A DNA stretch of 64,000 nucleotides from Chiloscyllium plagiosum. Lineage: Eukaryota. A program made the position numbers and the translations under genes. Below the pieces are notes generated by a model. The model made no database searches. It saw only the letters and a program-made list of their open reading frames with translations, and was not told the DNA's origin. Below are positions 3,878 to 61,596 of the stretch, in pieces (the first letter of the stretch is position 1; each line of letters opens with the position of its first letter). Location: contig NC_057719.1 of the NCBI RefSeq assembly GCF_004010195.1, forward strand, positions 40,405,323 through 40,469,322. Reading direction: 5' to 3'.

Positions 3878-4726
3878 AGAGTAGGTCAGGTAGCATTCAT
3901 GGAGAGAGAGACCCAGGTGACATTTTGAGTATAGGTGACTCTCAGAGCTGACATTAAGTGTGGAAAAGGCAACATTTATGAAATAGTGGGAGGTTTGGGG
4001 GGTGGGTTGGAAAACTGGGGGTGTGCTCAAGGAATGGAGTCCATGGTCTCTGGGACACGTTAGTCCATTCCTCGACCACCAACATCACATCTCCTTCCCA
4101 TGGCAACTTCTCATGTAACTGTAGAAGATGCAACACTTGCCCCTTCACCTCCTCCCTGCTTACCATCCAGGAACCTTAAGTGTTTCCAGGTAAAGCAGCA
4201 TTTCACCTGTACCACCTCCAACCTGGTCTGTTGCTGGACCCAGTATGGCCTACTCTACAATAGAGAAACCAAATGTAGACTGGGTGACCACTTTGCAGAA
4301 CACCGTCAGTATGTACACAAGCGTGACCTCAACCTTCCTGTAGCCGGTCATGTTAACACAGCATTCTGCTCGCATGCCCACTTGTCTGTCCTCTACATGC
4401 TGCAATGCTCCAGAGGATCATAGTGCAAATTGGAGGGACAACATCTCATCTTCAAACTAGGTATCTCACAACCTTCTGGACTTAATATTGAATTCAATAC
4501 CTACAGATTGTGAACCCAGTCACGTTTTTGTCCTTTTCTTATAGCTTTGCTTGTTGCATTCTCCATCCCCATGAGCACACCCCCAGTTTTCCAACCCACC
4601 CCCCAAACCTCTCACTATTTCATAAATGTTGCCTTTTCCACACTTAATGTCAGCTCTGATGAGAGTCACCTATACTAAAAATGTTAGCTGGGTCTCTCTT
4701 TCCATGAATGCTACCTGACCTGCTCT
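3878..4726 (+). mobile_element. Penelope-like element fragment (GIY-YIG remnant) bounded by inverted ~165 bp pLTR arms
   Basis: 4100-4500 LLYNRETKCRLGDHFAEH...PVAGH; 3878-4040 is the reverse complement of 4561-4726. Confidence 0.8.
4651..4690 (+). ncRNA. Degenerate minimal hammerhead ribozyme motif
   Basis: CAGCT-CTGATGA-GAGT(cacctat)ACT-aaaaa-TGTT-AGCTG; stem I CAGCT/AGCTG; GAAAC decayed. Confidence 0.6.
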
Positions 4727-6117
4727 ATCCCTTCGCCCCACTCCAGTGGGACTGTGTATCCTCTACATTTAGACATTGTTTTATCATTCTCACTTTCCAG
4801 TCACTTAATCTGTAGAACATAGAACATAGAAGAATACAGCGCAGTACATTTACCCCCACTGTACTATCAGTACTCTTTTTCCCTCTGCACTGCGCTCCCC
4901 TCCCCCTCTCCCCCCACCCTTACAAAAAATAAATGCTGCGCCTTCTGTGGGCTGGAGTAGTGCTGAAACTGTGTCCACTTATGTTGCAGGCAGTGCAGTA
5001 TCCTGAGAGCTAAAGATACTTGAGATATTTTTGACAGCCACTCAGTGAATATAAGTGTGTAAATAATGAGGGGATCGGCTCCCATATGAGGGGGTTGTAT
5101 GAGTCATGTGAGAGAGCCAGATATACACGAATATTCCCTGGTGGGCAGTGGGTCTGCTCGAGATCAGAGTGAAAGGAATTGGGTCAAGTATGGGTAGTGG
5201 TTGTGGGAATCAGGTATGGGAAGTTGAATCAGGTTAGATCAAAGTGGGATTCATAGGGATATGGGGAATCTGGTTTGATAGTATGTGGAAGGGTTTGATG
5301 ACAGTTAGTCAGAAGTCTTGCTGTGGGGTCTGTCCTCAGTGCAGACATCAGAGTGTCTATGGATGGTCAGGAAATATTTTTGTGGGGGAGACTGCAGTTT
5401 TATAGTTTGGGTTAAAACAGGTTTTCATCTCTAAACTTTCCTGGCTAACTATTCAGAGATAAGTGAATTTGATCCATCTGAAGTCTCCAACTCTAAATTG
5501 GAGTTGGGACATGTACAGAGGTTTTCAGGACAAAAGCCTATAGGAAGCTACAGAAGTTTCTGTCGGTTCAACTTTGTTGAATTTTCCATGTGATCCTCAA
5601 GTGCAACTCCAGTTTATGATTTGGTAACAATTACCTTTCCAGCAAAAGATCTGGGCTCTTACTATTATATTATTAAAATTTCTGTGGCTGATGTTGAAGA
5701 CAAATTAATCATGGATGGAATAGTCATTTCAACTGATGATATGACTACACAAGTCAGATCCCAGTCCAAAATCTGACTTGATAGAAGTTTTGTTTTGGTT
5801 TTGCTATGTGTCTTTCACCGAAATGCAAATATGCAAAGCTGCAGGTTTGTTTTAAACAATGAAACATATGTTTATTTCGCAAAAAATAGTGAAGATAAAA
5901 TATAATAAACTAAACTATTTCACAGAGGTAATTTCCTTCTCTTTCATGTTTATAAAACTTAATTTAATTGTGGCGTCATTTCCCATCTTGAGAATCTGAG
6001 CTTCTTCCAGCACCTTTTATACAATTGGGCTTAGACTTTTGAAACTTAATATCACTCTGCTAAACAAAGTTTAAGAGGCATTTAGACAAACACAAATGAC
6101 AAGCAAAGAAAAGAGGG

Positions 6118-6216
6118 AACAAAACAGAAATTGCAGGAAAAGCTCAACAGGTCTGGCAGCACCTGTGAAGAGAAATCAGAGTTAACATTTTGGGTCTGGT
6201 GACCCTTCCTCAGTTC
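6118..6216 (-). mobile_element. PLE-terminus-derived short insert with degenerate hammerhead
   Basis: Reverse complement: CTGAGGA-A-GGGTC(acca)GACCC-aAAAtGTT-AACT followed by the ctgatttctct...gctgccagacctg tail. Confidence 0.7.
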
Positions 6217-6421
6217 TGGGTCAAAAATTAATTTTGAGTAAAATAGGACAATTGAAATTCCAGTGGCACAGAAGAAATGTTTCATAGAAATTGTATGTAT
6301 CATTGTGTTGGCATGTTGCATCAGTTTAAAAGTAGATATCAGTTAATGCACCTAATTCATTTTTCTTTTATTATTACTGTTATTACTTTGAATAATTTCA
6401 TGTTTTTTGTTGTTGAAATAG

Positions 6422-6544
6422 GTTGGATTAGAAAAAGAAGTTGGTGCAGACACTCAACTAACTTACATGACAACAGGCGTTCTGCTTCAAAAAATTGTTA
6501 ATGCAAAATGCCTGACTGAATTTACACACATCTTCATTGATGAA
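6422..6544 (+). CDS. TDRD9: TDRD9 exon (123 nt): VGLEKEVGADTQLTYMTTGVLLQKIVNAKCLTEFTHIFIDE
   Basis: aaatag| and |gtagga, phase 0/0; ends with DE of DEVH. Confidence 0.95.
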
Positions 6545-7989
6545 GTAGGATATTTTCCATCAACTTTCTCATCATTAAATGTTGAGGCTTGATTTAACCA
6601 AAAAATCATTCCTAAGATCTTTGTGTATTTATTACCAGTCCCTAATTGCTATTGAGGCTGGTGGGCAGCCCCCTTAAAGTGAAGTCCATATGATGTCTGC
6701 ACATATACAATATAGTTAAGAGGTTGTGAAGGCCAGTTCATTGCATTATTTTAAGATAGAGTTCTTGATTGTTAAAGGGACCAAAGGTTATGGGGAGAAG
6801 GCAGGAGAATGGGGTTGAGAAACTTATCAGCCATGATTGAATGATAGAGCAAACTCAGTGGACCAAATGGTTTCTTTTCTGCTCCATTGTCTTCTGGTAT
6901 GTCAATGCTGAGGGGGAAGTGAATATTTAATATATATTGAATGGACAAACTTAGAAAGTGGGTTGCTTTGTTCTGGATAATGATGAGCTTTTTTGACTTA
7001 GCTAGGTATCAAAATGTAATGTTTTATGGCTGGAGGATAGGTTCTTGGGAGTCATGAGCAGAGTGGCCTCTAAGTTTCTTGCTGGCTGCTCAGGCCTCCG
7101 AGGTGTGTACTAGCGACATCCGGAACTGACTGTGCCATGATTGGCAAGTTGATGCTATTTTGTGTGTGTGTGGAGCGTTGGAGCTGCTGTGCACACAAGT
7201 AACGTGTAATTGAAAGTGAGAGTTTAATCCTTTGTTTCCTTTTAGACCAGATTGGACTCAGATTAATTTGTTTAAACTCAGTTTGCACGCCTGGGAGACG
7301 TACATATCCAAAAATGGCATACAGCTCAAGTAATGATTGCAAGAACAAGGCTTTTATACAATTTATGCAGATAACAGGCTTCCAATCAAAATATTACGCA
7401 TTTACTCACCCATATCTCTATCTAATCATGTTCGCAAAGTTTACGTTTCATGTTAGTGTACCTGACTATGTTATCAAATCATTCTACATGTTCACATCTC
7501 CTTACTGCAGTAGGTACCTGACTATTACCAAGAAACTGAAACTGCTTTCCCCTTTCACACCCTCCTATTACATATGCTGTCTATTTTCTCTTTTAGAGGT
7601 AACATTGGTCAGGAGGTGAAATTCCCACCACAGTTCACAGCCTTAGACATTAAGTAGATGGATCAATTATGCTGTTTGCCTGAATGGTTCCCTTAACTTT
7701 TTGTACTATTTGATTATGAGTGTCACCATTAAATAAAGCATTTGTTGCTCAACCTTAATTGCCTGTGAGAAGGAGATAATGAGGTAAAAACAAAGACTGC
7801 AGATGCTGGAAACCAGATTCTGGATTAGTGGTGCTGGAAAAGCACGGTTCAGGCAGCATCCAAGGAGCAATTCAGCTGGGGTATTTTCTCTACCTTTTGA
7901 TCCTGGAGATTGAGGTTCAAGTCCTATCTGCTCCACAGGTGTGTTAAAGCATCTCTGAACAGAAGGGGGATTTAGTAATGGAATGTGAC

Positions 7990-9630
7990 GAAATGGCGAG
8001 GCATTGAATAGGTATTTTGTGTCGCTCTTCGCACTGGAGGACATGAATAACATGCCAGAAATTGACAAAGAGATGAAGGTAGGTGAGAACCTGGAAACAA
8101 TCATCATCACGAAGGAGATAGTGTTGGGCAGGCTAATGGACCTAAAGGTAGACAAGTCTCCTGGCACTGATGGAATACATCCCAGGGTGCTAAAAGTAAT
8201 GGTAGGAGAAATAACAAATGCACTTGTGGTAATTTTTCAAAATTCACTGAACTCTGGGGCAGTTCCAGCGGATTGAAAAACAGCCACTGTTGAAAAAGGA
8301 AGATAGACAAAAGATGGGGAATTATATACCAGTTGGCTTAGCTTCTATAGTGGGGAAAATGTTTGAGTCTATTATCAAGGAAGAAATAGCAAGGCATCGA
8401 GATAGAAATTGTCCGGTTGGGCAGACACAGCATAGGTCCATGAAGGAACAGGTCATGCGTAACTAATCTTTTGGAATTCTGTGAAGACATTACAAGTATG
8501 GTGGACACTGGGGACCCAGTAGATGTAGTGTATCTAGATTTCCAAAAGAAATTTGACAAGGTGCCGCACAGAAAGCTGTTGCCTAAGAAAAAGATGCTAG
8601 GCGTTATGGGCAGTGTCTTAGCAAGGATAGAGGATTGGTTAACCAACAGGAAGCAAAGTGTGGGAATAAATAAATGCTATTCTGGTTGACAATCAGTGAC
8701 TAGTGGTGTGCCTCAGGTATCAGTCTTGGGACTGCAATTAGAGATGATTTGGAGTTGGTGACCACATGTAGTGTAACCATCTAAGATGCATGGTAGAGTA
8801 AAGTGTGCAGAGGACTGTGAAGTCTTGCAAAGGGATGTAGACAGTAGTGGGCAAAGGTCTGACAGATGGATCACAGTATTAATAAATGTGAAGTCATCCA
8901 TTTTGGTAGGAATAACAGTAAAAATGACTATTACTTAATGGTAAGAAATTGCAGCACACTGCTGTGCAGAATCACAGAAGGTAAGTCTGCAGGTGCAACA
9001 GTTAATTAAGAAAGCAAATGGAATTTTGTCCTTCATTGTGTTGAGTTTAGAAACAGGGAGGTTGTGTTGCAGCTATATCGGGTGCTGGTGAAACCACACT
9101 TGGAGATTTGGTTGCCTTACTTTGGGAAAGGATTACTGGCACTGGAGGGGGTGTAAAGGAGATTCACTAGGTTGATTCTGGAGTTGTGAGGGTTGGCTTA
9201 TGAGGAGAGACTGAGTAGACTGGGATTATATTCATTGGAATTCAGAAGAATTTTGTAGAAACATAAAATTATGAAGAGAATAGATAAGATCGAAGTAGAG
9301 AGGATGTTTCCACTGGTGGGTGAAACTAGGTTAAGAGGCATAGCCTCAAAATTAGGGGGAGCAGCTTAGGACGGAATTGAGAAGCAACGTCTTCACCCAG
9401 AGATTTGTGAATCTATGGAATTCCTTACCTAATGAAGTGGTTGAGGCTTCCTGAGTAAATGTTCTTAAAGTTAAGATTTTTTGAACAGTAAAAGAATTAA
9501 AGGTTATAGTGAGAGAGTGGGTAAGTGGAGCTGAGGCCACGAAAATATCAACCATGATCACCTTGAATAGCGGAGCAGGCTTCAAAGTCCAGGTGGCCTG
9601 CTCCTGCTCCTAGTTTTCATCTTATGTTCT
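7990..9630 (+). mobile_element. CR1 LINE ORF2/RT plus 3' UTR, decayed
   Basis: KVDKSPGTDGIHPRVLK; VDVVYLDFQKKFDKVPH; 3' tail ggcctgctcctgctcctagttt. Confidence 0.9.
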
Positions 9631-10014
9631 TATTTACTACAAAATATCTGCAACCAGTGATTGTGGGATATTTGTGCAACTGGAGCTCTGAATCCATTTT
9701 TGGGAGCTGCCCAGTCTAGCCCTAAATGTGTTCCAGGGATTTTCTCTGTTATGTCAAGCAAACTCAGTTCAATGTAGGAAACACTTGTTAGGGTGGTAGT
9801 TAACATTCGGAATGAAACAGATATCAACTGAGATTTCCTCTCCTGTTACTGCTCAGTCTGGCTTGATGTTTGTCAAAAGGATTAGACATGGATGAGACTT
9901 TGGAAAGTTGTTGTATTTGTGAGCCAAGCAAGAGTCTGCAGTTTCTAGGAAATTGGGTGTGAAAGTTTGGCGTGGGAAAGCAAATTAAACCAATTTCCTG
10001 AACTCTCGAAAAGC

Positions 10015-11410
10015 TCCTTATAAGGTGGTGAGGACAAGCCAGGGAACTATAGATCAGTGAGCCTGATGTTGGTGGTGGGCAAGTTATTGAAGGGAATCCT
10101 GAGAGACAGGATGTACATGTATTTGGAAAGGCAAGGACTGATTAGGATTAGTCAACATGGCTTTGTGCATGGGAAATGGTGTTTCTCAAACTTGATGGAG
10201 TTTTGTAAAGAAGCAACAAAGAGGATTGATGAGGGCAAAGCAGTAGATGTGATCTATATCGACTTGAGTAAGGCGTTTGACAAGCTTTCCCATGGGAGAC
10301 TGGTTAGCAAGGTTAGATCTCACAAAACACAGAGAGACTTAGTCTTTCGGATACAGAACTGGCACAAAGGCAGAGGGTAGTGGTGGAGGGTTGTCTTTCA
10401 GACTGGAGGCCTGTGACCAGTGGAGTGCTGCAAGGATCGGTGCTGGGTCCACTACTTTTCATCATTTATATGAATGATTTGGATGTGCGCATAAGAGGTA
10501 TTGTTATTACGTTTGCAGATGACACCAAATTTGGAGATGTAGTGGACAGCAAAAAAGGGTTACTTCGGATTACAACGGGGTCTTGATCGGATGGGCCAAT
10601 GGGCTGAGAAGTGGCAAATGGAGTTTAATTTAGATAAATGTGAGGTGCTGCATTTTGGAAAAGCAAATCTTAGCAGGACTTATACACTTAATGATAAGGT
10701 CCTGGGGAGTGTTGCTAAACAAAGAGACCTTGGAGTGCACGTTCATAGCTCCTTGAAAGTAGAGTCACAGGTAGATAGGATTTTTGGTATGATTTCCTTT
10801 ATTGGTCAGAGTATTGAGTACAGGAGTTGGGATGTCATGTTGTGGCTATACAGGATATTGGTTAGGCCACTGTTGGAATATTGCATGCAGTTCTGGTCTC
10901 CTTCCTATTGAAAAGATGTTGTGAAACTTGAAAGGGTTCAGGAAAGATTTACAAGGATGTTGCCAGGGTTGGAGGATTTGAGCTATAGGGAGAGGCTGAA
11001 CAGGCTGGGGCTATTTTCCCTGGAGCGTCGGAGGCTGAGGGGTGACCTTTATCGAGGTTTACAAAATTGAGGGGCATGGATTGGATAAATAGGCAGAGCC
11101 ATTTCCCTGGGTTGAGGGGGTCCATAACCAGAGGGTATAGGTTTAGGGTGAGAGGGGAAAGATATAAAAGCGATCTAAGGGACAACTTTTTCACGCAGAG
11201 GGTGGTATGTGTATGGAATGAGCTGCAGAGGAAGTGGTGGAGGTAAGTACAATTGCAACATTTAAAAGGCATCTGGATGGGTATGTGAATAGGAAGGATT
11301 TGGAGAGATGTGGGCCGTGTGCTGGCAGGTGGGACTAGATTGGGTTGGGATATCTGGTTGGCATGGATGGGTTGGACCGAAGGATCTGTTTCCGTGCTGT
11401 GCATCTCTGA
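10015..11410 (+). mobile_element. CR1 LINE RT plus 3' end
   Basis: SQHGF, DVIYIDLSKAFDK, VTSGVLQGSVLGPLLF, FADDTK, LVRPLLEYC with stops and frameshifts. Confidence 0.92.
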
Positions 11411-11580
11411 CTTTGACTCGAAGTTGTACATGTTCTAGGATTATGACTATATCTGATCTTTGGGTTCAAATGATAATTGGAAAAAGATGACATTTTGTGA
11501 ATAATTGTGAAGATTTCATAAAACTGACATATAAAACAGGAAAAATGAGCAGCTTCTGTACTTATTGTCATCATGTTCAG

Positions 11581-11661
11581 GTCCACGAACGCACTGAAGA
11601 AATGGATTTTCTGTTGCTGGTTGTCCGTAAGCTACTCCGTACAAATTCACGGTTTGTTAAG
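11581..11661 (+). CDS. TDRD9: TDRD9 exon (81 nt): VHERTEEMDFLLLVVRKLLRTNSRFVK
   Basis: gttcag| and |gtgagt; completes DEVH. Confidence 0.95.
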
Positions 11662-12429
11662 GTGAGTCTTTCATAAAATGCCTAAACAGATTCCTTCAAT
11701 GATTACCACCTACACAAAGATATTTACAATTTTATCTGTGCAATATCTAGTGCAAAAGTGTAGCACATTTCATTCTTTGTTGTAAAGCATGTTATATGTG
11801 CTATGAATGAGTTGCTCAGGCCATGTGAGGAACTAAAGAAACATGTAATTGTTGGGGCTTATATTTGTTATATGTTTGGAGTTTGGTCAGTTTGGTGACA
11901 TTTGACAATTCCTTACAATACTGTGGTGTTATATTTTGTTCAGTGGTAGCACTTCTGCCTCGTATCAGAGCATTGTTGGATCTCACCTCATTATGAAGTG
12001 TTGCACATGTCATCTAGGTCAGTCTGTCCCAAATTATTTTTCAGTGTAACCCCATTTTAACACTTGAGAATCAACCTAACGTCAGGCACCAAAAAAAAGC
12101 ACTGTAGCATTCAGTGTATAATTACTGATGTTTCTACATTGCAGATCAATATGTAATACATGATATCAGTAGGAAAATGTATTTTAGTTTACTGGGTCAA
12201 AAGATGATTTCATATTCTTATGTAGGCTTTAGCCATGCTGTTCACAATCCTGGTGATAGATGACTCAGTGCTGTGTTGCCCATTGCCCTCTATAAAGATG
12301 GCACTTGTTCGTCTGGGCATGTCAGCAGGGGAAATCTGTCAGCTGTCTCCCTGTTCAGCACAAACACAAGACCAGTAGCTACTTATTTGGGGTTGTGCCC
12401 TAAATGTGAAGCCTCTCTGTCCATCCTCC

Positions 12430-12745
12430 ATGCTGTCCTCTGCCATGAGAACGGACCTCTATGTCACAGAAGCCAAACACCAACTCTCCAACACCACATC
12501 CTACCTCCCCTTTGCCCACAACCCCACTGGACTCTATCAGGCCAAAATCACCTGCACTGTCCATGTCCTCATTGCCTCCGGTGATTTCCCCTCCACTGTC
12601 TCCAAACTCATGGTCTCCCAGCCCGATACTGTCCAGTTCTACCTGCTCCCCAATATCCACAAGCCCAACTACCCTGGCCCACTGAACTCCTACCTCGACT
12701 CCATCCTCTTTCCCTTAGTTCAGGCACTTCCCTACCTACATCACT
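12430..12745 (+). mobile_element. Penelope-like RT N-terminal fragment
   Basis: DLYVTEAKHQLSNTTSYLP...FYLLPNIHKPNYPG...SYLDSILFPLVQ. Confidence 0.75.
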
Positions 12746-13356
12746 TAATGAGGCATTAAGTGAATGCAATTTTTTTCCCATGCGATTCCTTCTTAGTTTT
12801 CCCTATCCTTTGTCTCCAAACTATAAAAGAAACCTCATTGGAGTTTCAGTTTCTAACATGACATTTAAACTACCTCCTTGCAGAGATGCACCTTTTTTAT
12901 GGTATAATTCAGGTACAGGTCAGCATGGATAGGCATAAAATTAACATGGAAATCTATATATTTATAAATATTGATGCTATAACTTGCTGTTGCTAAAGGT
13001 CTATAGAAATAGGAGCATGCATAGGCCACTTAAATTCTTGAGCATGCTCTGCCGTTTAGCTGGAGCATCGCTGATATTCTACCATGACACCATTTCTTGC
13101 TGTATCCCAATTTCCTTTCAGTATCTAGAAATCTATTGATCTGTCTTGAGTATACTCAGTCTCCACGGACCTCTGCATTGATCTGGATTCAAAACAAGAA
13201 AGGACAACCTAAACCAATAATTTATTTACCATAATGCATTGATTGGATGGCATCTGGAGTGCTTATGTACTTATAGTGTTTCAAAATGTTTTTGTTTTAA
13301 TTTTGATAAATTCATGGTAGTTTTCACTTTGAAAAGTGTTTGTTAAATTCTCACAG

Positions 13357-13521
13357 GTGATTCTAATGTCTGCTACAATTAATTGCATGGAATTTGCAGA
13401 CTACTTTGCAGTACCATTCCGAAAGACCCTGACCCCTGCCTATGTATTTGAGGTAGATGGAGTCCCATACAGCATTGATGAATATTATCTTGATGATCTC
13501 AAAGAGCTGATCCATTTCCAG
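13357..13521 (+). CDS. TDRD9: TDRD9 exon (165 nt): VILMSATINCMEFADYF...YYLDDLKELIHFQ, motif III
   Basis: tcacag| and |gtgaga, phase 0/0. Confidence 0.95.
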
Positions 13522-14859
13522 GTGAGATGGTTTTTAATAAATTTTTGCAAAATTAAGCTTTTTTTTGGATTTTCTGAAAAATAGAAATCAAGACAGAAGT
13601 GCATATTTGAAATTTTATGTTCAACTTTCATGACTTTGGAGAATTTGTATGTTTTAATGTTCTCCAGAGTTAAGGATAGCTTTTATTCTAATAATCCAAT
13701 TGCCCTTTGTGGGGCACAGGCAGGAATTATTTTTTTTTCCCTTGGTAGAGTGATCAGTGACCAGGGTTGGGGAGAGGAGGTTTAGAGGGGACGTGAGGAT
13801 AAGTTTTTTTTAAACTATTCAGAGTTGGAACGCATCACCTGTAAGGGTGGTACAGGCAGAAACACTCATGACATTTAAGTCGTCTTGAGATGTGCGTTTG
13901 TGATGCCAGTGCGCACAAGGCTCTGGGCCAAGTGCTGGACAATGGGAATAGAATAGTTAGGTAGTTGTTTTTAATGTACGTAGACTTGATGGGCCCCAAA
14001 TGTCTTTTCCCCGAATATCTCTAATGCTGAGAGAAATCAACAGACAGCAGGTCCTGGCAAGTTAAAATGATCACCCCAACAACCTTGTGGACAAGGGGAC
14101 ATTGATCTTCCTTCTCAGATTTCCCCTTGACCCTTAATAGCAATATTTTATTTTTGTGTTTGTTCACATGTGTATACGGGAAGTGTTAAAATTCTAACGA
14201 GTAGAGACACATGTCAGTAGTTCATAATTGTTCACCTAGTGTTCCATCTTTTCATTATTTTTCCAAAAGTAATTCTTAAGTACAGAAAGCTGGTCCATGC
14301 TTTCTATCAATCAGGGTGTAAAAAACATAAGTTGGGGAATTTTGTGTACTTCTCATAAAAGCTTTAACTAGTGATTAGTTAGGAAATCGTGGGCCTTGAT
14401 TTCCAGTACACAGTTCCAGTGAGATATAACAAGTGTTAAAAGTGTGTGTGTTGACATTTAGAGGGGATCGCATCAATGTGCATCATCTGGCTAAAGCTGA
14501 TGTATTTATTGGCCAATCACGGAACGTCTTTTTTCGCTTTCTTTGTTTTCTACATAGTTTTTCTCTCCACTGTTGCTGCTAGACCTGCATTGTTTCTTGA
14601 GCACTTTGTGTATTTATTTCAGGTCTCCGGCATCCACATATTTTGCTTTCATCATTCAATTTGTGTTTGTTGCCTCTTCCAATGTAGAAGAAGAAATTGG
14701 TTAGAAATTGTTGTCTCTTAAAGTATAAGTAGTGAGGATGAGGCGCCCTTTGATATACGAAGAAAGAGGGTTGAGAACGAAAGTTCGTATGTCATGGATT
14801 TGAATAATGTCAGTTGACAACAAATATCTTGAGCTTGAGTTAAAAAAAAACAGAGTCAT

Positions 14860-40055: not shown

Positions 40056-40069
40056 TCTCTACATAATTT

Positions 40070-48843: not shown

Positions 48844-49099
48844 GTTCGTTATTGCATGTTTACTCTTTCAAAAATAATTAGCATCCAAGTGTTTGAGAGT
48901 TATTTGTTCATTCATTGACAATGAAATGCAGCACTTCAAACCTTACATTATAATTGATCAATGCTTTCTTTACAAAGTCAAATGCTTTCAGACTAAGGCG
49001 ATGCATACTCATTTTGTTCAGGTTTTAATTCAGTACATTATGAGACAGTTACAAGCTGCAGATAACTTGTATATATACTTGATGGTCATACAAACAGAA

Positions 49100-49690: not shown

Positions 49691-49889
49691 CTATGGTGTC
49701 ATATTTTTGTAATTGACTGTCTCCACCAAATATAGTATCTATGACTTCCCCTTGATATTCATCTGTACTGTTATGTAAAGTATCCCACCATCTTTTGATC
49801 AGTAATAATAAAACTGGATATTTGTAGAAAGTGATGACCGCAGATGCTGGAGAGTCAGAGTCAAAAAGTGTGGCGCTGGAAAAAGCAAA

Positions 49890-50925: not shown

Positions 50926-51125
50926 CAGAGTGAGTACCTGGAACATGCCACCAGAGGAGGTGGTCAAAGCAAGCACAATAGCAGCAGTCAAGAAACCTTG
51001 GACGAATACATGACTAGGAAAGGAATAGAAGGATACAGTTGCTGTAAGTGAAAACAGTTTTAGTATGTAAGGTTAGTGCAGGCTTGGAGGGCTGAAGGGC
51101 TTGTTTTTGCACTGTATTTTTCTTT
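50926..51125 (+). mobile_element. CR1 LINE 3' tail
   Basis: cctggaacatgccaccagaggaggtgg...ggcttggagggctgaagggc. Confidence 0.7.
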
Positions 51126-51340
51126 GTCTGAATTGTCCACTCTGCCATGCGATCTCCGCCATTGAGAGGATGAGCAGCAGGATTGTGGGAGCAAAGTGAC
51201 CTCCAAGTTGTCATCTTAATCAAAATGCATCCTGATTTGAACATCCTTTGTCCTTATTTGATCACACTTCTATAATTGCCATGACAGCACCACCAGCATA
51301 TTGGCGGTGTAGTGAAAGAGAGTATGCAAAAGAAAGATTT

Positions 51341-51902
51341 CCTCTACATTGGGGAGACAGGCCGCCTACTTGCGGAACGTTTCAGAGAACACCTCTGGGA
51401 CACCCGCACCAACCAACCCAACCGTCCCGTGGCTGAACACTTTAACTCCCCCTCCCACTCCGCCAAGGACATGCAGGTCCTTGGCCGCCTCCATCGCCAG
51501 ACCATGGCAACACGACGCCTGGAGGAAGAGCGCCTCATCTTCCGCCTAGGAACCCTCCAACCACAAGGGATGAATGCAGATTTCTCCAGCTTCCTCATTT
51601 CCCCTCCCCCCACCTTATCTCAGTCCCAACCCTCGGACTCAGTACCGCCTTCTTGACCTACAATCATCTTCCCGACCTCTCCGCCCCCACCCACTCTCCG
51701 GCCTATCACTCTCACCTTAACTTCCTTCCACCTATCGCATTCCCAACACCCCTCCCCCAAGTCCCTCCTCCCTGCCTTTTATCTTAGCCTCCTTGGCACA
51801 CCTTCCTCATTCCTGAAGAAGGGCTTAAGCCCGAAATGTCGATTCTCCTGCTCCTTGGATGCTGCCTGACCTGCTGCGCTTTTCTAGCAACACATTTTTC
51901 AG
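51341..51902 (+). mobile_element. Penelope-like 3' end (GIY-YIG endonuclease plus pLTR), little decayed
   Basis: LYIGETGRLLAERFREHLWDTRTNQPNRPVAEHFNSPSH...RRLEEERLIFRLGTLQPQGMNADF; possible imperfect TSD aaaagaa..attt. Confidence 0.92.
51809..51844 (+). ncRNA. Minimal hammerhead motif (C15.2>T)
   Basis: CTGAAGA-A-GGGC(ttaa)GCCC-GAAAt-GTC. Confidence 0.68.
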
Positions 51903-52730
51903 AAAAGAAGTATTTTAAAAGCTTCATGCAATCCCAATCTAAGACTGTGTATTTTCAGACCGTTTGTTTTATTCACCTTGAATGAAGAAAGTGTGAGATA
52001 ATCAGTGGAGATTGGAGTGATTATGGAATTGTCCAAACAATTTGTATTTGAAGACACACTGAAGATGTATAAGGAATACTTAAAACTGCATCATCTTTAT
52101 CACCAATGTTCTCTCTTGTAATGTACATTAGCGGCAGCTGCTTAGATTCTAATTCATGTTTTTAATAAAATTGAAGGACAGGTATTATTGAAAAATGTCC
52201 ATTCTTCATTGATCTTGATACTACAGTGCAGTTATTGTTATATCCAGTACTATTTTATCTTATGAAAATTTTCAAGGTAGACCAGAACATGCTTGTTTTC
52301 ATTTCTTCACTTCAGAGTTTTGCTGTTGTTGGCTGCTGTCAGTTGGTCAGTTCTATTCTTCAACCTTAGAGTTTGACTTCCGGTGTATTATTTGAAAAAC
52401 TATCCTTACAAGTTGATAATTGTGTAGCTGTATGATTTTATTTGGCTACATTTGTTATGAATAGTTGTTAAAATTGAATGAGATTCATAAAAATCATCAC
52501 TCTTGAAATAACTGGACCATAATGAATTTTATTGGGTCATTCCAACTTGGATGCTTCATAAGACAATTCATAAAAAATGTACAGCTTTGTTTAACTGATT
52601 TCAACTCTTGGCATTATTGACTTTTGTTCATATTTCAACATTTTGATTTTGTGTCTCAATATTAAGTTTTGCCCTTTGTAAATTGATGTATTGTGCACCT
52701 ATTCTTACCATTGTTATTGATATGACACAG

Positions 52731-52784
52731 GCTGAGTTAGAATGGGGAAAGTCAAATTACATCCAGATAAAAAGAATTAAAGAG
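52731..52784 (+). CDS. TDRD9: TDRD9 exon (54 nt): AELEWGKSNYIQIKRIKE
   Basis: acacag| and |gtgagt, phase 0/0. Confidence 0.93.
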
Positions 52785-55108
52785 GTGAGTTTATTGTCAA
52801 GGACTAATATATAACAACAAAGACTGTTAATGTTTAACAATTACCTGGTAGCTGTAATATTCCATTCCCATAGCTGTACTTCTCTTCACAATTTCAAGGA
52901 GTTGTTCACATGTCTGTTTTCTTCAATTGCAAGTTTCCTGAAATTACTAAAATGTATTCAAGAACTTCACAATTGCAATATTCTTCTTCATCAGTATACA
53001 TCTCCATAGGGAGAAATAATTCATGAAGCTAATAGTGAAGTGAATTTAATGTCATTTTGCCTGTGAGCCATTTCTTGCTGTAAGTCTGACACTGCAGTAA
53101 TGAATTGAAGAAGTGGGGATCTGCTCATAGGATTTTTTTAAAGGAATTTGTCTCTTGTGTATTTGGCTGAAGTTCGAACAAAGTAAGGTTTGAGAACTAT
53201 TGTAACAAGAATGGAAATGGTGTAACACACAGAAGTGGTTCATTATTTTAGTCTAAGTTATTGAAGGACCTGGGTAGCAGAAGTGCAGTAAACTTCTGCA
53301 GATTACGTAATTAATTATAGCACAGAGGACCATTGATTCTAACATATCTGTGCCAGCTCTCCACTGAGCAGTTTCTCTAGCCCCTCTCTCCTTCCTTTTC
53401 CAGTGACCTAGCAAAGTTTGTTCTTCAGCTAATCAATAAATTCTTTTTGAGAAACCTTGATTCTGCCTTCACCATATTGTCAGGCAGTGCACTCCAGTTG
53501 CTAACTTCTTGCTGCATTAAAACAAACATTCCTCCCATTTTTCCTTTGCTGCTTTTGACACTTACCTTTTAAATATGTACCCTTTGGTCTCAACCTACCA
53601 TTAAAAATGATTTCTCCTCTCTTCTCTGCAAAGTTCGTTTTTATTTTGAACATCTTCATTCATTTCTTAATCTTCTCCTTCAAGGAGTACAGCTACAACT
53701 TCTGCAATCTGCCCATGAAGTTGACTTACAGGATCCCTAGAGACATAATCATGATTCTTTTCTGCACTTTTTCAAATGTCTTCACATGACTCCACAGCTG
53801 TTTTTTGAGGTCATGCCAAATGAATCGAATTGGCTGAAGGCTGACATCTGTTATATGTCTGCCCAGTCCACCAACTTTTCGATGTTATCTTGAGTTTTGT
53901 CACGATGTTATTCACAATGCATTTTGTGTCATCTTCACACTTTGATGTTGTGCAGTTTATGATCTGGAACTCCATTTTGTAACTTTCTCCAGTTGGAAGT
54001 GCAGCTATTTACCAGCGCTCTGTTTTCTGTCTGTGAGTCAGGTTTGTTTCCATACTGGTATAATTGCCATTGTTACATCGGCGCTAACTTGACAGACATA
54101 CCAATTATGTGACATTTCTTCAACTCTTTTTGTCAATCCTTTTATCTTCTCAACCTTCTGTGATAACTTATCAAACTCTAAAAGGTTTGCCTTTAATAGT
54201 TATTAGGCAGGCTTTTGTTAATTAATCTACATTTGTCAAAATGATTGTTAATTCTGCCCTAGTATTGTTTCCAAAAGCTTTTCCATCAACAAGATTAAAC
54301 TCTCATGGCAATAGTTGGCTGGGCTTATAGTTTTAACCTTTTTTGAACAAGGTTGACATTATTTATTGTTTTCCTGTCCTTTGACCCAACCCCTTTATCC
54401 AAGGAGCATCAGAAAATTATGGTCATTGTCTGTAAATTGCAGCCATCTCTAAGATGCAGGTGATGTGGAACTGGTGAGCTTATCAGCTTCAAGTTTAACC
54501 AGCCTATAAAAGACTTTCTCATCCCCAATTTTTAACATAGCTAGCATCTCAGCTACCTCCTCTTTTGAATTGACTCTGGGCAGCATTTTCCTTGCTAAAT
54601 ACAGGAGTGAAGTACTCATTTAGTACTCACATTATGCTCACATTCAGCCTCTCTGTTTACATCTTCTTTTAGGACCTTTCCTGTTTCCCAAATATGTATG
54701 ATTTATATGTTGAAAGAAAATTGAGATTGTCTTTCATAAGCGTTGTCTATCTTTTTGTACTTTTTCTATTTCCACTCATTACTGTTTTTCATATTCTCTT
54801 CAAAGTTTTATATTCTGCCCGATTCTGAATTACAGAATAATCTAACATCTGTCTTGTCTGCTTTATTTTCATTATCCAGGGAGTTCTGGCTAAATGTGTT
54901 TGAAAGACAGATCATTACTCTTGTTGTTTTGTCTGTCAGTTTTTGTTTTCCATTTCTGGGTTGGATAGTCTGCCATCTGATTGATCTTGCCCCTCACCTG
55001 ATTGATTATTCTTTCTTCTAGATAAAATAGCGAAGACCTGTGGTAATTATATGATTTCAAAACTAGGTAGGGTTTGCAGCGTAGGATTTCAAAAGAAGAA
55101 ATTAATTA

Positions 55109-55181
55109 AGTTCTGAAAAAGGGTTATTGGACCTGAGACATTAGCTCTGATTTCTCTCCACAGATGCTGCAGACCTGCTGA
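55109..55181 (+). mobile_element. Degenerate PLE hammerhead-tail insert
   Basis: agttctgaaaaagggttattggacctgagacattagctctgatttctctccacagatgctgc. Confidence 0.65.
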
Positions 55182-55239
55182 AATGTAATGTTTTTCAACA
55201 TGAATTCCAATTAATTCATTTTTGACTGGTTCCTCCTAG

Positions 55240-55356
55240 GTGGCACAGTTGTATGAGGAATTGAAAGAACGTGTCCAATGTTTTAATATGTGTGTTGATC
55301 ACCCCAGTGGGTGTACAAATGAAGAGTATGTACATAAACAAAGATTCATTCTGCAG
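55240..55356 (+). CDS. TDRD9: TDRD9 exon (117 nt): VAQLYEELKERVQCFNMCVDHPSGCTNEEYVHKQRFILQ
   Basis: tcctag| and |gtactg, phase 0/0. Confidence 0.94.
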
Positions 55357-55599
55357 GTACTGTTTTGTTTTTTTCCATGTTTCTATTTTCAAAACTTTTC
55401 AAGTTTTACATCTTACCTAAATATTGACCAAATTTTACAACAGCCTGATGTGATGTGTGCACCTGTTATTCAATAGAGGTATCCTGGTCCCTTCCTTGTA
55501 TGACTGGTCTGGTAAAAGACAGAAAGAGACTCTGCCCCTTACGCACCCAGCATGAAGTTCCTGCAGAGGCCAGGTCCTTGCACATTGACAGCAAGGAGG

Positions 55600-55920
55600 A
55601 CTGGGAGCAGGAATAGATCATGTGGAACAACATTTTGCTATGCTTTAATTATGATCGTGGCTGATCTGATTGTGGTCTTTGGGTCACTTTTTTTTTGTTC
55701 TCCACCCTCCTCCCCCACACACCCTCATGTCTCTCCTACAAGGGCAAGCACCCTCTCGGCAATTACCCTGTAAAGTCCCCTCTGGACCTTATATGTTTCA
55801 ATAAGATCACCTCTGAACGTTTTGTGAAGTGCAGAGTCAAGGGCCAATCTGTTCAACCTTGCTACATAACTTGAGCATTTTATCCTCTGAAAGAACCAAG
55901 CAAACCTCTGAACCGCTAAC
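55600..55920 (-). mobile_element. CR1 LINE 3' remnant
   Basis: FRGDLIETYKV. Confidence 0.7.
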
Positions 55921-56096
55921 ACAATTCCTCTTCAAACAAACTTTTATTTTAATGCATTGATGCACTTTGAGCATCTGTTTTTGAAGACCCCTATTTAGGT
56001 ATCTACTTGCCCGAGTGAATAGACGTGAGTTTTAAAAATTAGAGTTGCCTGCTTTAACTTGTGCTTTGTTTATATTGCAATGTAATTTTTCCATAG

Positions 56097-56204
56097 GTTG
56101 TCCTGGCTGGAGCTTTTTACCCCAATTATTTTACATTTGGTCCAGTCTCTGAAGAAATTGCAATGAAAGAGCTGGCTAGAAAAGACTACAAAACTACAGT
56201 AGTG
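56097..56204 (+). CDS. TDRD9: TDRD9 exon (108 nt): VVLAGAFYPNYFTFGPVSEEIAMKELARKDYKTTVV
   Basis: ccatag| and |gtatgt, phase 0/0; AGAFYPNY motif. Confidence 0.95.
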
Positions 56205-56350
56205 GTATGTAGGCATGACTTGGGAGAATTTTGGTTATGCTTCATTGATTTTTTTGGTATAAAAACTCTGGCATATTTGTTGGAGAATACAGACCAAAAT
56301 GCTATATTGGCACATGCTTAATTGTAAATGCTTTGTTCGGTTTAAATGTC

Positions 56351-56545
56351 AAAAAGTGCAGAGCTGGAAAAACACAGCGGGTCAGGCAGCATCTGAGGAG
56401 CGGGAGCGTCGACGCTTTGGGCATAAGCGAAGGGTTTATGCCCAAAACATTGATTCTCCTGCTCGTCGAATGCTGTCTGACCTGTATGGTTCCAGCTCTG
56501 CACTTTTTGCCTCTGATCTCCAGCATCTGCAGTCCTCACTTTCTC
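56351..56545. repeat. Fold-back pair of PLE hammerhead tails (~78 bp arms, few-nt spacer)
   Basis: aaaaagtgcagagctggaa...ttgggcataagc versus gtttatgcccaa...ttccagctctgcacttttt. Confidence 0.85.
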
Positions 56546-56888
56546 TTGAGTTTAAATATCTACATGTAGAGTAATTATTATTTTTTAAATAAAAACTCTT
56601 GACAAATAAAATATTTCAAAAACTTCATTGAATTGTAAACCTTACTTTGAAAGAATTAAAAATAGCCACTTCCATGATTCAAATGAAAAAAATTCAGCAG
56701 TATCATGCTCAATTATAAACATTGGTTTGAGGTGGTCATGCTCAAAATCCTGGTTCTGTTTTGTTTTTATACTTGCTTTTCACTGTCATGAAACAATTCT
56801 CTTCCTTTAGTTTAAATTTCTGAAACATTTGTGTCAGTGTTGTGAATATTAGAACCATCTCTTGTATGTTATATTAGGCACTAAAAAT

Positions 56889-57017
56889 TCCTGAAGAAGG
56901 GCTTATGCCCAAAACGTCGATTCTCCTGTTCCTTTGATGCTGCCTGACCTGCTGCGCTTTTCCAGCAACACATTTTTAAGCTCTGATCTCCAGCATCTGC
57001 AGTCCTCACTTTCTCCT
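56889..57017 (+). mobile_element. 129-bp hammerhead-containing PLE-terminus insert with 9-bp TSD
   Basis: actaaaaat at 56880-56888 and 57018-57026; CTGAAGA-A-GGGC(ttat)GCCC-aAAAC-GTC. Confidence 0.88.
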
Positions 57018-57074
57018 ACTAAAAATGTATTGTTTTGGTTTAAACATAAAATGAATTACAGTTGAACAATTACC

Positions 57075-57112
57075 AGTTCTGAGGAAAGGTCACTTGACCC
57101 GAAACATTAACT
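57075..57112 (+). ncRNA. Minimal hammerhead motif
   Basis: AGTT-CTGAGGA-A-aGGTC(actt)GACCc-GAAAC-aTT-AACT; stem I AGTT/AACT. Confidence 0.65.
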
Positions 57113-57139
57113 CTGATTTCTCTCCACAGATGCTTTTGG

Positions 57140-57253
57140 AGCTTTCGGAGCGCTGCTCCTCCACAACCGTCTGATGAAGGAGCGGTGCTCTGAAAACTAG
57201 TATTTCCAATTAAACCTGAGGGCTATAACCTGGTGTTGTGTGATTTTTAACTT
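57140..57253 (+). mobile_element. Third-family hammerhead-bearing short element with inverted 5' copy
   Basis: CTGATGA-A-GGAGC(ggt)GCTCt-GAAA-acTA at 57171-57199; 57140-57160 is the reverse complement aggagcagcgctccgaaagct. Confidence 0.7.
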
Positions 57254-58482
57254 TGTTTTCTTATGCTCTTTGTGCTTATAAAAGCCATGCTTGTTTTGAT
57301 GAAAAGGTGAAAACAGGCATTGAATGGCTGCTATCCAGGTATGACATGCCCGTTGCAATTGTAGTTTTAGCAACTTCGGTCTTAGTACATATTTTTCGAA
57401 TCAGCCTCATAATATATTTTAATCAAAAATGTTATGAGGCCTCTGAAATAGGTAGGTCTTGAGGACAGTTCTCCTGGCTCAGAGGTAGGGATATTGCCAC
57501 AGTACCACAAATGGCCGAATTCTTATCTTCATTGATAAATGCTGTAATTTGAAATAGGCTGCACTTGAAGGCATAGTACTTGTGCTGATTGGTTGGAAGT
57601 TTTCTGAGCGCAGGTGGGTTTTACTCATCCAGTTCGACCAGGATGGTTTGGGAACCAAGAGACAAGAACATAGCGGCACTGAAAGTCCTGGTAGAGGGCT
57701 TTCAAAGAGAGTAATCAGTGGTGTTATGAAGGAGAGTCATTGGACTTGAAATTTTAACTCTTTCCAGCTTCTTTCCAGCTGCTGTCAGACCTTTCTGGTT
57801 TTGTTCCAGATCTCTAGCATCTGGAGTATTTTGCCTAATTTCAGCTCCTTTGTATCATGGTCTTTATATATCATGTACTCTTAGTAGTGAATGTCCAACT
57901 CCTTGTCTTATCCCTTTGTTTTGAAGCAGTGGGTACTGCTGTGCTATGGTCTCCTACCTTTCTCCACTTCTTGCAGTTTGCAGGTCTATAGGAAGACACC
58001 ATTGACCAAGTGTTTATTGTTCCTGGTGAATCTAGAAGGACTCCCAGTCCACAAGTTAATCCTTGTAGAAGATTTCTAGGATAGCTATGGACAGTTCTTA
58101 TGAACTCTTGACATTGTATTCCAGTAAGTCTCCTCATATGTTTCAAAAGACTGCTTCAAACCTGCAGCAACAAGTCCACAGGGAAAATAGACAAGGTCGA
58201 TGTCAATCCTTGCAATGACTTGTTCACTCCTTAAATCATTGGTTGTTGTTAGGTGAGGGTGATCTGCCAACAGCTATTTATTAAGTGTACATCTGTGTTA
58301 ATAAGTACAAACAGACAATTCAAGTTGCAACCCGCCTGTCAACAATTCTACGTAGAAATTAATGATAAAATGTTTGTCTCAAATAAGAATTAAACCTTCA
58401 CTTGTATTTCAGAATGAGTACCATAGCCACCATCCTGTCAATTTTGTTGGAGGAACTAAAATCTGATATCATTGTGCTGTAG

Positions 58483-58583
58483 GTGAGGAATGTCCCACCT
58501 TATGGATTCCTATACTACCAACAGTTGCTATCTCTGTTCAGGCAGTGTGGTCAAATCAGAGCTCTTTCATTTGATGGTTCAAA
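58483..58583 (+). CDS. TDRD9: TDRD9 exon (101 nt): VRNVPPYGFLYYQQLLSLFRQCGQIRALSFDGS(K), RRM-like segment
   Basis: ctgtag| and |gtaagt, phase 0/2. Confidence 0.94.
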
Positions 58584-59029
58584 GTAAGTTGAATTTGGTT
58601 TGCTGATAACTTCATTAACGTGTTTAAATGAACTTTGACTCAATACATTGGGTGGGTTCTCAGCTTTATTGTAACAATGCTAATGTTTAGATTTGTTTTC
58701 TGACCTATCCAAAATGCTTTGAATGTTCAAGGAAATTTACATCAATAAAATAGAAATTCAAATGACAAAAAGCCTTCATTCAGAAGATAAAGGGGGGATT
58801 GTGAGAGGCAAAGTAAATTTGTGATTTCACTGTTGATCTCATTAAGAAAATGTCAGTGTTTGTACTGTTTATATAAATATAATATTAGTGTAGTCATTGA
58901 TGTTAACTTTAAGTATTGGTGCTGTGATACTGCAGGAGTTCTTCTTCCAGTAAAGTAATATGTCACTACCTTATCCACAGCTGAATTCAGAAGCAAAGGG
59001 TTCTCCTCTATTTACTGCTGGGTTGAGTT

Positions 59030-59370
59030 ATAAGATCATAAGATGTAAGAGTGGAAGTAAGCCATTAGGTCCATTGATGTCTGCTCTGTCACTCAATGAG
59101 ATCATGGCTGATATGATAATCCTTGCCTTCACTTTCTTTATCCCATAAACCTTACAGATTAAAAATCTGTTTATCTCAGTCTTGAATGTACTTAATGACC
59201 CAGCCTGAACGGCCCTCTGTAGTAAAGAATTCCATAGACTCATTGCTCTCTGAGAGAAATTTCTCCTCATCTCTGACTTAAATAGATGACCCCTTACTCT
59301 GACATTATGCCCTCTGTCCTTGGACTCTCCCACAAGAGGAGCCAACCTTTGTATCAACCCTGTCAAACTG
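59030..59370 (-). mobile_element. CR1 LINE 3' end
   Basis: MRRNFSQRAMSLWNSL...FKTEINRFL. Confidence 0.82.
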
Positions 59371-61503
59371 AACTTAAGGAGACAAAGAAAAACCACGTCA
59401 GGAGGCCAAAGTCAGTGATAGTCCCAAAGACTGGGATAATTTCATGTTGCAGCACTGGAGGACAAAAAGATGATCGAGATACAAAATTAACTATGAGAGC
59501 AAACTGAGAGCAGGCCTGTACTTTCCCCCTTCTTGCGTACCCTCTAATTAAGTAAAAGCCCTAGTTATTCAGTTTGCCGGGACACTAAGATGATTCAGGA
59601 TAGCTATTTGTGCGAAGTTGTTTGTAATACTATTTTCTGAATGAAGTCTGAATGGAATTGCTAATCCAAGCTGTTCACCCTAATCTCAGTTTACCCAGCT
59701 GCTCTAATTTTGATGTTTTTACATTTTTTATGGTTCCTTAATCAGAATTATCTTACTGATGCCAAGAAATTCTGTAAGTGCTTACAGCTTAGCAGCAGGC
59801 ATGCCCTGGCAATGAACTACAACTGTAAACAATATAGTACTTCCATAACACAATGCTCAACAAATGCAACTCCTTGATCAACTCCACATCTTGTCACCGT
59901 GGAAATGGAGAGTTCAGTCATTACATATATATAATGCAATGTTATCTAACAATGTTTTTCTTAAAAAAAAACAAATTCTTCCAATTTACTAGGAGTAAGA
60001 CAGACTTATCGGAAGAGATGTTTCTTGTGACATGGGTACCTTCAATCAGTGTGGTCAACCAGTTTGTAAAACATTGTGCTCGAAAGACTACAGAAAATTA
60101 TCAAAGCTATCATCTAGCTGAGGGAATTTTTCATGTAATTTGTACAATTCCCTCAAATCATAATGGCAGACCTAAAATGATGCACTCCAATGGTCTTCAC
60201 ACTTCATTTTCGTAGTTTGCTAGTTATCTATTCCTGCTGAGGGCAGAGTTTTCTATATGAAGACATTTTTGTTTCTTGGATTTCAACCAGTATTGCCTGA
60301 CTTGAATTTTGAATATCGTGTATAAAAGCCAAGGATTTGGAAGTATTGATGGATCCTCAGATGTTTGTTTACAAGTATTAAAAGCTTTAAGACAATGTGG
60401 TGAGGAATCCTGTTGTTGAAAAGCCTTTAATTGGAAGATTTGTGTAGACAAATTGCATGAAATTCTCTTCAGTGCGGAGCAACCAATGGTCAGTGATCTC
60501 AAAATATATGAAATGCAGTGGAACAAGTCAGAATGCACATGTTATACTAGTACAACTGTACCTGTCTTTAGATGTAACACACATGAATAAACATGTACAG
60601 CATGACAGTAAATAATGTGCCGATAGCATTCTAACGTATATATGCTTTATTTAAAACTTTGGGCTGTTGATAATAGATAAAACCATTTTAGTAACCATTA
60701 TTCTGTTGGAAGAATGATCTAAACAAACTTAAACTGTTCAGATTCTTTTGGCAAAGACCAGAGAATTAAACTTGGGGTTGACAACTATAAATTGTCAGTT
60801 TCAAATCTTTTACTCTGGTGTTCCAACCAAGGCTCTCATCCAACCACTTTAAGATAAAATGAAACAAAAACTTTTTCCACTTGTCATGATGACCAGTTAA
60901 ATAGATTATCTTCTTGTTTTAAATAAAAAAAATCTATCAACCTGCTTTCTTAATGAACAATTGAATTTATTCTCAAAACAAAATCTATTCATTAAAGATG
61001 TAGTCATTGATTAATGAATACAATTAGTAATATTTATCCCTTTAAATGTTCCCAATAGCACAGCCACAGTCTTCAGAAAAACAGGCAAAATAAAATCTCT
61101 GTAGAGATTGACATTTTGAAAAGAATGGTTCATCGGCCAAAAGATAAAGTACAGGATATTATGGAGTTTGTTGCAGTGGTTGGCCAGCACAAACGATCAA
61201 GTCACTAATCGCTCATGTTTTGTCTCTGAAGTATTGCAGATACAGCTTACTCAGGAAGTCCAACTGGAGATGTTCTTTCAATTTCTCTTTCAAAATATGA
61301 AGTAGGTTCCACTTCCACTAGGTTTACTTTTCAGAAATAGGCATGGTCAGCTGGGCAGTTTGTTCATAGTAAGCTTTCCTCCAACTCACCTTGTTATAAG
61401 TGGCGGGGTGGTGGGGGGTGGAATTTTGCCAACTCCATTAGATAACATAAGAATCTCTCCAAGTCAGTTCAAATAAACAGTTTATACAGCAGTATAAAAA
61501 CCA

Positions 61504-61596
61504 AGTCCTGAGCAAGGGTCACCAGACCCGAAACGTTAACTTTGATTTCTCTTTACAGATGCTGCCGGACCTGCTGAGCTTTTCCAGCAACTTCTG
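61504..61596 (+). mobile_element. PLE-terminus insert with hammerhead motif (G8>C)
   Basis: CTGAGcA-A-GGGTC(acca)GACCC-GAAAC-GTT-AACT plus tail. Confidence 0.78.

Follow-up and report, generated by a model that had tools for sequence, protein, structure and literature searches.

Hammerhead ribozyme relics of Penelope-like elements in the introns of TDRD9 of the shark Chiloscyllium plagiosum

The TDRD9 locus, its Penelope-type insertions and their ribozyme

The stretch of DNA analysed here (the window) comprises 64,000 nt of Chiloscyllium plagiosum NC_057719.1, and all coordinates are positions within it. It carries part of the gene TDRD9, which lies on the + strand, with mapped exons between 3305 and 62245, and extends past both window ends; its translated exons match TDRD9 proteins, the best match being a Chiloscyllium plagiosum entry (96%). 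Scattered through the introns are short sequences with the motif of minimal hammerhead ribozymes (min-HHR), which are almost certainly relics of the terminal repeats (pseudo-long terminal repeats, pLTR) of Neptune- and Poseidon-type Penelope-like elements, as judged from sequence. The best overall explanation, which is likely to be right, is that they are decaying pLTR pieces at a density typical of the genome, and mostly copies of a capped, uncut 5' leader. Four families were distinguished; the labels N1, N2, P1 and P2 were coined in the present analysis.

An earlier note on this DNA had placed the motifs in TDRD9 introns, and the exon mapping agrees, as no motif overlaps any mapped exon (residues ~668-685 unmapped). 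Its description of them as minimal type I hammerhead relics of Penelope termini from several families is supported by Penelope-type endonuclease or reverse transcriptase (RT) fragments directly upstream of five motifs (4656, 26504, 30102(-), 38450 and 51813). For N1, RT, a CX4CxxC linker (found by inspection) and, at the C-terminus, a GIY-YIG domain are present in the fragments 30969-31752(-) and 51285-51653(+); the Pfam matches (GIY-YIG with E 0.008 and 0.045, RVT_1 with E 0.038) all stay under the curated cut-offs. A CX2-5CxxC linker before GIY-YIG marks the Neptune clade (10.1101/2021.04.23.441226; here and below, cited papers are represented by excerpts of their text), to which N1 would belong. 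In two P2 loci (L139 and L140), the thumb leads straight into GIY-YIG without a Zn-finger linker according to translations read by inspection, which suggests the architecture of the Penelope/Poseidon clade. N2 is probably Neptune, via a tail motif common with N1, and P1 has the same end architecture as the other families. Hallmarks of pLTRs are present in the form of two classes of 3' ends ~37 nt apart and 47 inverted pairs. An intact source element was not found; the longest frames were runs of N in all seven loci inspected, and the longest real open stretch spans a few hundred residues.

Motifs were counted with a strict descriptor (CTGANGA, an optional base, four stem II pairs, GAAA and N-N-T-H). 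The window holds four such motifs, compared with a mean of 0.17 and a maximum of 1 in 30 dinucleotide shuffles. Homologous sequence was found at or within ~35 nt of all 19 positions listed in the earlier note, so the sites themselves stand, whereas only four of the 19 pass the strict test (57079 fails by G10.1 to A). The claim that the core stays fixed has to be given up, as CTGANGA and GAAA are both exact and in register at only five sites, namely 23036(-), 26504(+), 51813(+), 57079(+) and 57171(+). At 56400(-)/56430(+), CTGANGA was lost at a fold-back junction, and the sites 3945(-), 4656, 40441(-)/40467, 55113 and 30102(-) are degenerate.

Across families, the boxes CUGANGA and GAAA occur with an N-U-H cut triplet. 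As noticed before, stem III is a loopless palindrome (ACGT or AGCT; 15.2/16.2 paired in 9 of 10 family representatives) and an extra base follows A9 across families, with G10.1-C11.1 kept. Stem I of the commonest family consists of 2 bp, a U-U mismatch and an A-U pair. In an N2 subfamily, the core pair C3-G8 is replaced by U3-A8, a compensated change (loci L049, L068, L088, L168:4819-4861 and L184); eight pattern matches, at least six of them real, were present in the genomic sample described below, and the variant has been reported from Schistosoma.

The covariation of stems I and II between families, also proposed earlier, was examined in 12 hand-picked natural copies without P1, and pairs were scored by script on named columns, MAFFT having displaced P1 by one column. 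Stem I together with G10.1-C11.1 was paired in 93.3% of cells compared with 66.7% in shuffles, and slid controls reached at most 41.7%. Two-sided changes numbered 17 versus 5.9 in shuffles, a value reached in 0 of 500. Stem II pairs 1-3 were paired in 10/10 representatives, for most of which stem II had been part of the selection. RNAalifold gave no consensus structure, with loops of unequal length misaligned, and an Rfam search of the window, with E values allowed up to 10, gave no hammerhead; the expectation that annotation misses these relics is thus confirmed as far as Rfam is concerned.

Because of this stem covariation, the ribozyme is taken to be under selection in the source elements, and the sequences of inserted copies point to neutral decay. 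No selection on the catalytic core was seen in 48 young copies drawn genome-wide (3 were skipped): differing cells amounted to 8/480 in the core outside CpG sites and 27/1296 in the tail (Fisher p 0.70), and to 13/288 at the CpG sites (C11.1-G12, 15.2-16.2 and H17-N1.1), with which many core losses coincide.

In the 10 representatives, the predicted active double-hammerhead lies 3-25 kcal/mol above the best dimer fold (tertiary contacts are outside the energy model). This agrees with reports of low activity in minimal hammerheads of such type, which cut poorly even as dimers (PMC4209133). The copy at 26504(+) is the only one in the window that keeps core, palindrome and a partial, 2-bp stem I, and it is predicted to fold otherwise within its own flanks. 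The TDRD9 copies are unlikely to cut host pre-mRNA to an appreciable extent, and 26504 would be the only local copy worth cleavage testing. The copy at 23005(-), previously put forward for assays, has its core at 23036(-), is antisense to TDRD9 and retains no stem I pair.

Sequence words next to the ribozyme differ between families. The extra base is A in N1, N2 and P1, and U in P2, so that A9-U-G10.1 reads ATG (window 38450-38470); this matches the anole Poseidon, whose reading frame begins at stem II. P1 carries AATAAA or ATTAAA ~6 nt past the predicted cut site (window 57205-57215), and in one N1 subfamily AATAAA is found close to where the short tail ends; both are possible polyadenylation signals.

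Ends of the copies and their proposed origin

Genomic background was taken from 140 segments, each 10 kb long and placed at round coordinates (1,353,049 non-N bases). The 5' ends were mapped outward from the tail, hence unconditioned on the ribozyme, with window copies and copies with N at the junction left out; positions are counted relative to core C3, with +24..+32 as the cut-site zone. Most copies are 90-130 nt long and begin at the 5' edge of the ribozyme, not at the cut site. Among young N1 copies, 55/80 begin within -13..+11, 3/80 at the cut site and 18/80 upstream of -20; the corresponding values for older N1 copies are 46/92, 9/92 and 15/92. For P1, 28/56 begin in the hot zone and 3/56 at the cut site. 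In public reads and contigs over 26340-26680, the best 5' loose end was at 26500, the predicted +1 of this copy, and 3' loose ends were at 26589-26593 and 26628.

Genome-wide, 12,883 matches begin at -4 and 12,544 at -3 after one non-element base, compared with 420 cut-site starts preceded by two non-element bases, although the filters behind these figures differ by a factor of ~2-3; ~30 of the first 100 cut-site starts listed were microhomology fold-backs. The base before the A at -4 was G in 6,882 matches versus 6,001 with A plus T, that is 53% against ~25% expected at 40% GC. One base downstream, G was seen by eye in 16 of the first 100 listed versus ~29% expected. In L1 and SVA, an untemplated G is accepted as the mark of cap copying (PMC4859970). 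Where T replaced the +1 A, the base before this T was G in ~13/38 of the junctions listed; this could be a cap G followed by a misread first base, or fold-back sequence.

Promoter-like words lie at the corresponding distance. The base at -4 is an A within an initiator-like word, the initiator consensus being YYANWYY. In 7/30 N2 loci, those with element-like upstream sequence, a TATA-like word was seen by eye 29-31 nt above this A, and the seven differ in the sequence in between; such a word is also present in the window copies 3945 and 4656. In P1, the base at -8 is an A with TATAAAT 30-32 nt above it. Two copies continue beyond the long tail, and the sequence that they share there has an ATG ~38 nt further on, consistent with a tail situated inside the 5' leader. 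These sequence features make it quite probable that capped, uncut RNA served as the template for most insertions.

The 3' ends (in the tail-anchored mapping, the positions of young copies are one base too high) fall into the two classes almost evenly in solo N1 copies (56 to 54). In head-to-head pairs, one long and one short tail were combined in 45/47 (N1 30/31, P1 15/16), and 24/31 N1 pairs had a common flank of 9-17 nt, a single target duplication for both arms; in the window, head-to-head arrangements are found at 56345-56545, 40316-40560 and 3878-4726. Because the tails are unlike, against the even split of solo copies, and the flank is shared, each pair rather likely goes back to a single event, with priming on both strands of a staggered cut. 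The one-sided tail and inverted pLTRs were already known (10.1101/2021.04.23.441226, PMC3846280); new here are the pair count and the link to the cap.

Taken together, the following course of events is proposed. Transcription would start 4 nt (Neptune) or ~8 nt (P1) above the core, so that the ribozyme is transcribed first. The element's enzyme would make a staggered double cut, and reverse transcription would begin at either of two internal sites (downstream of the core by ~90 and ~127 nt), proceed to the cap and frequently add a G opposite to it. Both cut strands would be primed, one per start site, and the complementary DNAs (cDNAs) joined head to head by short microhomologies. The protein of the anole Poseidon does cut and extend both strands in vitro, with two internal starts and using uncut RNA (PMC11167929). 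Because the upstream promoter is missing, short copies were probably dead on arrival.

Several observations weigh against this proposal. The hot zone of 5' ends is ~25 nt wide and not a single base, and P2 does not have it (4/22). In the 1.35 Mb sample, G preceded only 4/13 distinct copies starting at -4 (by eye), a lower share than in the genome-wide count; fold-backs made up 14 of 30 loci with a preceding G, and in the other 16 the G was clearly outside the target duplication in 3 and inside it in 2. N1, the dominant family, has no canonical TATA, only TTTATCT at ~-32. RNA ends showed no start or end peak, with reads on both strands, in the one informative run, raw single-cell data from an unsuited library. 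For P1, no RT-endonuclease frame was found within 1.2 kb upstream of two long copies. In Drosophila virilis, transcription starts >100 nt above the ribozyme, with an intron in between (PMC2377424, PMC4209133), and in the anole study the start sites were alike on both strands (PMC11167929).

A further scheme, which has to be regarded as tentative and rather doubtful, would make the short copies strong-stop products. A dimeric enzyme with two RNAs would prime both strands at fixed sites, run to the cap, jump to the 3' repeat and copy the coding region, as in retroviruses but anchored in the target; the RNAs might be paired via the 4-nt palindrome of the hammerhead, and the ribozyme at +1 might serve as a switch, gated by the protein, for decapping the RNA or defining the 3' repeat. 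If this were true, the ~one million stubs in the shark would have arisen from jumps that failed, and would preserve the cycle directly as fossils.

Alternatively, the hot zone might be made not by an RNA end but by the endonuclease, or by repair of longer cDNAs, at a preferred sequence or at a hairpin prone to fold back. This is unlikely. The anole enzyme favours ATT, the N1 sequence at -4 (PMC11167929), microhomology and a perfect or nearly palindromic sequence are seen at many junctions, and self-priming was proposed for rotifer copies (PMC3846280). N2 (AGTT, AGCT) and P1 do not have ATT there, yet their short copies start in the same zone, and neither the G excess at a single position nor the TATA spacing is predicted by this explanation; fold-back of one cDNA would yield like tails, whereas the tails observed are unlike. 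A splice acceptor as the cause of the hot zone was also considered and dropped, as the short copies have no common upstream exon-like sequence.

It is very improbable that the short units form an independent non-autonomous family, similar to retrozymes or short interspersed nuclear elements, that moves via ribozyme-cut or circular RNA. Copy numbers are very high, and animal retrozymes are pLTR-derived and present in one chondrichthyan (10.64898/2026.07.22.740005). The copies are not circularly permuted and rarely start at the cut site, the same subfamily variants are found in long copies joined to endonuclease sequence, and the promoter-like words fall outside the short unit. No tandem hammerhead array was found in the window, and copies in the sample were dispersed. 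In a separate search, U6 at cut sites was looked for in young N1 only: T-runs abutted the cut site in 15 matches, 10 of them with decayed ribozymes, and in these 15 loci Rfam identified no U6.

The idea that the relics have to do with the transposon-silencing function of TDRD9, raised by the earlier note, is not supported by the counts. The sample contained 96 strict motifs (71 per Mb), which extrapolates to ~250,000 genome-wide, and tails extrapolate to ~one million relics. The exact N1 pattern matched 87,506 times in the genome (0 for the reversed control), the exact N2 pattern 604 times and the 5' half of P1 30,416 times. Against this background, the window had 4 strict motifs where 4.5 were expected (3 sense, 1 antisense), and the mapped gene span 7 where 8.2 were expected (3 sense, 4 antisense); Neptune tails were 6/6 sense/antisense in the window and 10/12 in the gene. 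An enrichment in TDRD9 with sense bias was therefore rejected, density being as expected and strands balanced. In the gene span, P2 tails (9 versus 3.0 expected) and P1 tails (0 versus 5.7) deviated, but this carries no weight, as copies are clumped (for P1, variance 0.91 at a mean of 0.47 per 10 kb) and several comparisons were made. As counts match the genome background and strands are balanced, the host gene is best seen as a coincidence, and a TDRD9-specific role is very probably absent. A role of the sense copies in cleaving or regulating TDRD9 pre-mRNA, with an effect on transposon silencing, is extremely unlikely: three strict motifs are sense, 26504 retains core and palindrome, and the anole ribozyme cuts with bound protein, making feedback conceivable (PMC11167929), but enrichment, strand bias and any departure from neutral decay are missing, stem I has 2 bp, 26504 is predicted to misfold in its flanks, intact sense partners are 25 kb apart, and such motifs cut poorly even as dimers (PMC4209133).

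Further features of the window

Table 1. TDRD9 and the Penelope-type copies in the window (core, position of the ribozyme core)
Feature	Position	Strand	Remarks
TDRD9 coding exons and introns	3305..62245	+	residues 129-852 of best match
N2 pLTR (Neptune-type), inverted	3878..4039	-	core 3945 with deletion; CATAAAT 31 nt above predicted +1
GIY-YIG-like fragment (4064-4423), then N2 pLTR (4561-4726)	4064..4726	+	GIY-YIG by inspection, no Pfam match; core 4656, stem II degenerate; pLTR head-to-head with 3878-4039(-)
Short N2 copy	6123..6221	-	core 6213, G12 to A
Short older N1 copy	15676..15815	-	core 15807; C3 and G12 altered; long tail
Short older N1 copy	22184..22309	+	begins at core; C3 lost; palindrome broken
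Young N1 copy	22941..23045	-	core 23036 intact; no stem I pair left; antisense to TDRD9
Young N1 copy with endonuclease remnant	26258..26632	+	core 26504; predicted +1 26500; cut predicted after 26531; tail ends of the family near 26589 and 26628
Neptune element remnant	29974..31752	-	RT thumb 31459-31752; CX4CxxC linker and GIY-YIG 30969-31232; DNA of other retroelements in between; pLTR with degenerate core at 30102
P2 (Poseidon-type) remnant	38070..38561	+	endonuclease C-terminus; TATAAAT; core 38450 with G12 to A
N2 head-to-head pair	40316..40560	.	degenerate cores near 40441(-) and 40467(+); long hairpin fold
Young N1 remnant	51285..51902	+	GIY-YIG 51285-51653; 3' untranslated stretch; core 51813 intact; palindrome with wobble; short tail
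Short degenerate N2 copy	55104..55181	+	core 55113; ~60 nt above an exon
Older N1 head-to-head pair	56345..56545	.	CTGANGA gone at junction; one short and one long tail; 8-nt flank in common
Young N1 copy	56887..57020	+	begins exactly at predicted +1; long tail; G12 to A; flank of 9 nt in common, first bases of copy included
N2 copy	57068..57134	+	core 57079, G10.1 to A; interrupted by next insertion
P1 copy with short inverted stub	57140..57255	+	core 57171 intact; AGCT palindrome broken
Degenerate N2 copy	57726..57800	+	additional, absent from the earlier list
Short N2 copy	61500..61605	+	core 61508, G8 to C; 10-nt target duplication

One insertion from each of three families is found between 56887 and 57255 (within 370 nt), and the P1 copy truncates the N2 copy. 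Tail-only copies without ribozyme were found at 7782-7870(-), 35855-35950(+) and 49826-49894(-). The pairs at 56345-56545 and 40316-40560 would form hairpins of ~-113 and ~-117 kcal/mol, respectively, in TDRD9 pre-mRNA, the former ~140 nt below an exon, and such pairs are possible editing or small-RNA substrates.

Other RT-encoding fragments resembling long interspersed nuclear elements (LINEs) are present at 597-953, 9258-11412, 14845-15961, 34559-35372, 50208-50812 and elsewhere, and include the RVT_1 matches at 10024-10377 and 50510-50809. They may be CR1- and L2/RTE-like.

Comparison with known systems

The motifs represent a known kind of ribozyme in a known class of transposons, unrelated to the host gene but in a new host and in very large number. 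The min-HHR that Cervera and De la Pena (2014, PMC4209133) described in metazoan pLTRs have the same type I topology with a loopless palindromic helix III, and are alike in the extra base between 9 and 10.1, in G10.1-C11.1 and in the U3-A8 variant. Several families per genome, mostly single truncated copies and some pairs on opposite strands are likewise found in both. Sharks are not named in the excerpts of that study, and the commonest shark family has a 2-bp stem I. The 87,506 matches of one pattern, or ~250,000 motifs by extrapolation, compare with ~4,000 in the coelacanth and ~9,000 in Xenopus, obtained there with different descriptors; on these excerpts, the shark count is far above that of other vertebrates. 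A literature search that covered few subscription papers and no supplements found nothing on Penelope hammerheads of sharks, a ribozyme at +1 or cap-marked pLTR copies.

With described Neptune and Penelope/Poseidon elements (10.1101/2021.04.23.441226, PMC3846280), the shark copies share the C-terminal GIY-YIG, the Zn-finger linker of Neptune, heavy 5' truncation, an inverted 5' copy, target duplications, a tail of 30-40 bp at one end, and TATA- and initiator-like words in the pLTR. They differ from known Penelope-like elements in that the commonest insertion is non-coding, that 5' ends lie at the ribozyme edge with an extra G, and that the combination of unlike tails was counted (45/47). Non-LTR retrozymes (10.64898/2026.07.22.740005) are also short, non-coding and pLTR-derived and carry a type I hammerhead; they are tandem, whereas the shark copies are dispersed, single or head-to-head, and do not start at the cut site.

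The closest functional counterpart is the anole Poseidon PAc studied in vitro (Frangieh et al. 2024, PMC11167929), with two internal starts, both strands extended, an uncut template and a protein predicted to be a dimer. The shark data are a genomic record, not biochemistry, and concern mainly Neptune; the start sites are anti-correlated per event and the ribozyme apparently lies at +1. The cited papers leave open what the ribozyme does and how the inverted ends and the one-sided tail of Penelope-like elements arose. The shark genome, with tens of thousands of young clean insertions, allows a transcription start to be predicted to the base; these insertions point to uncut RNA as the likely template for most of them, and would link the two start sites seen in vitro to the two strands of one cut.

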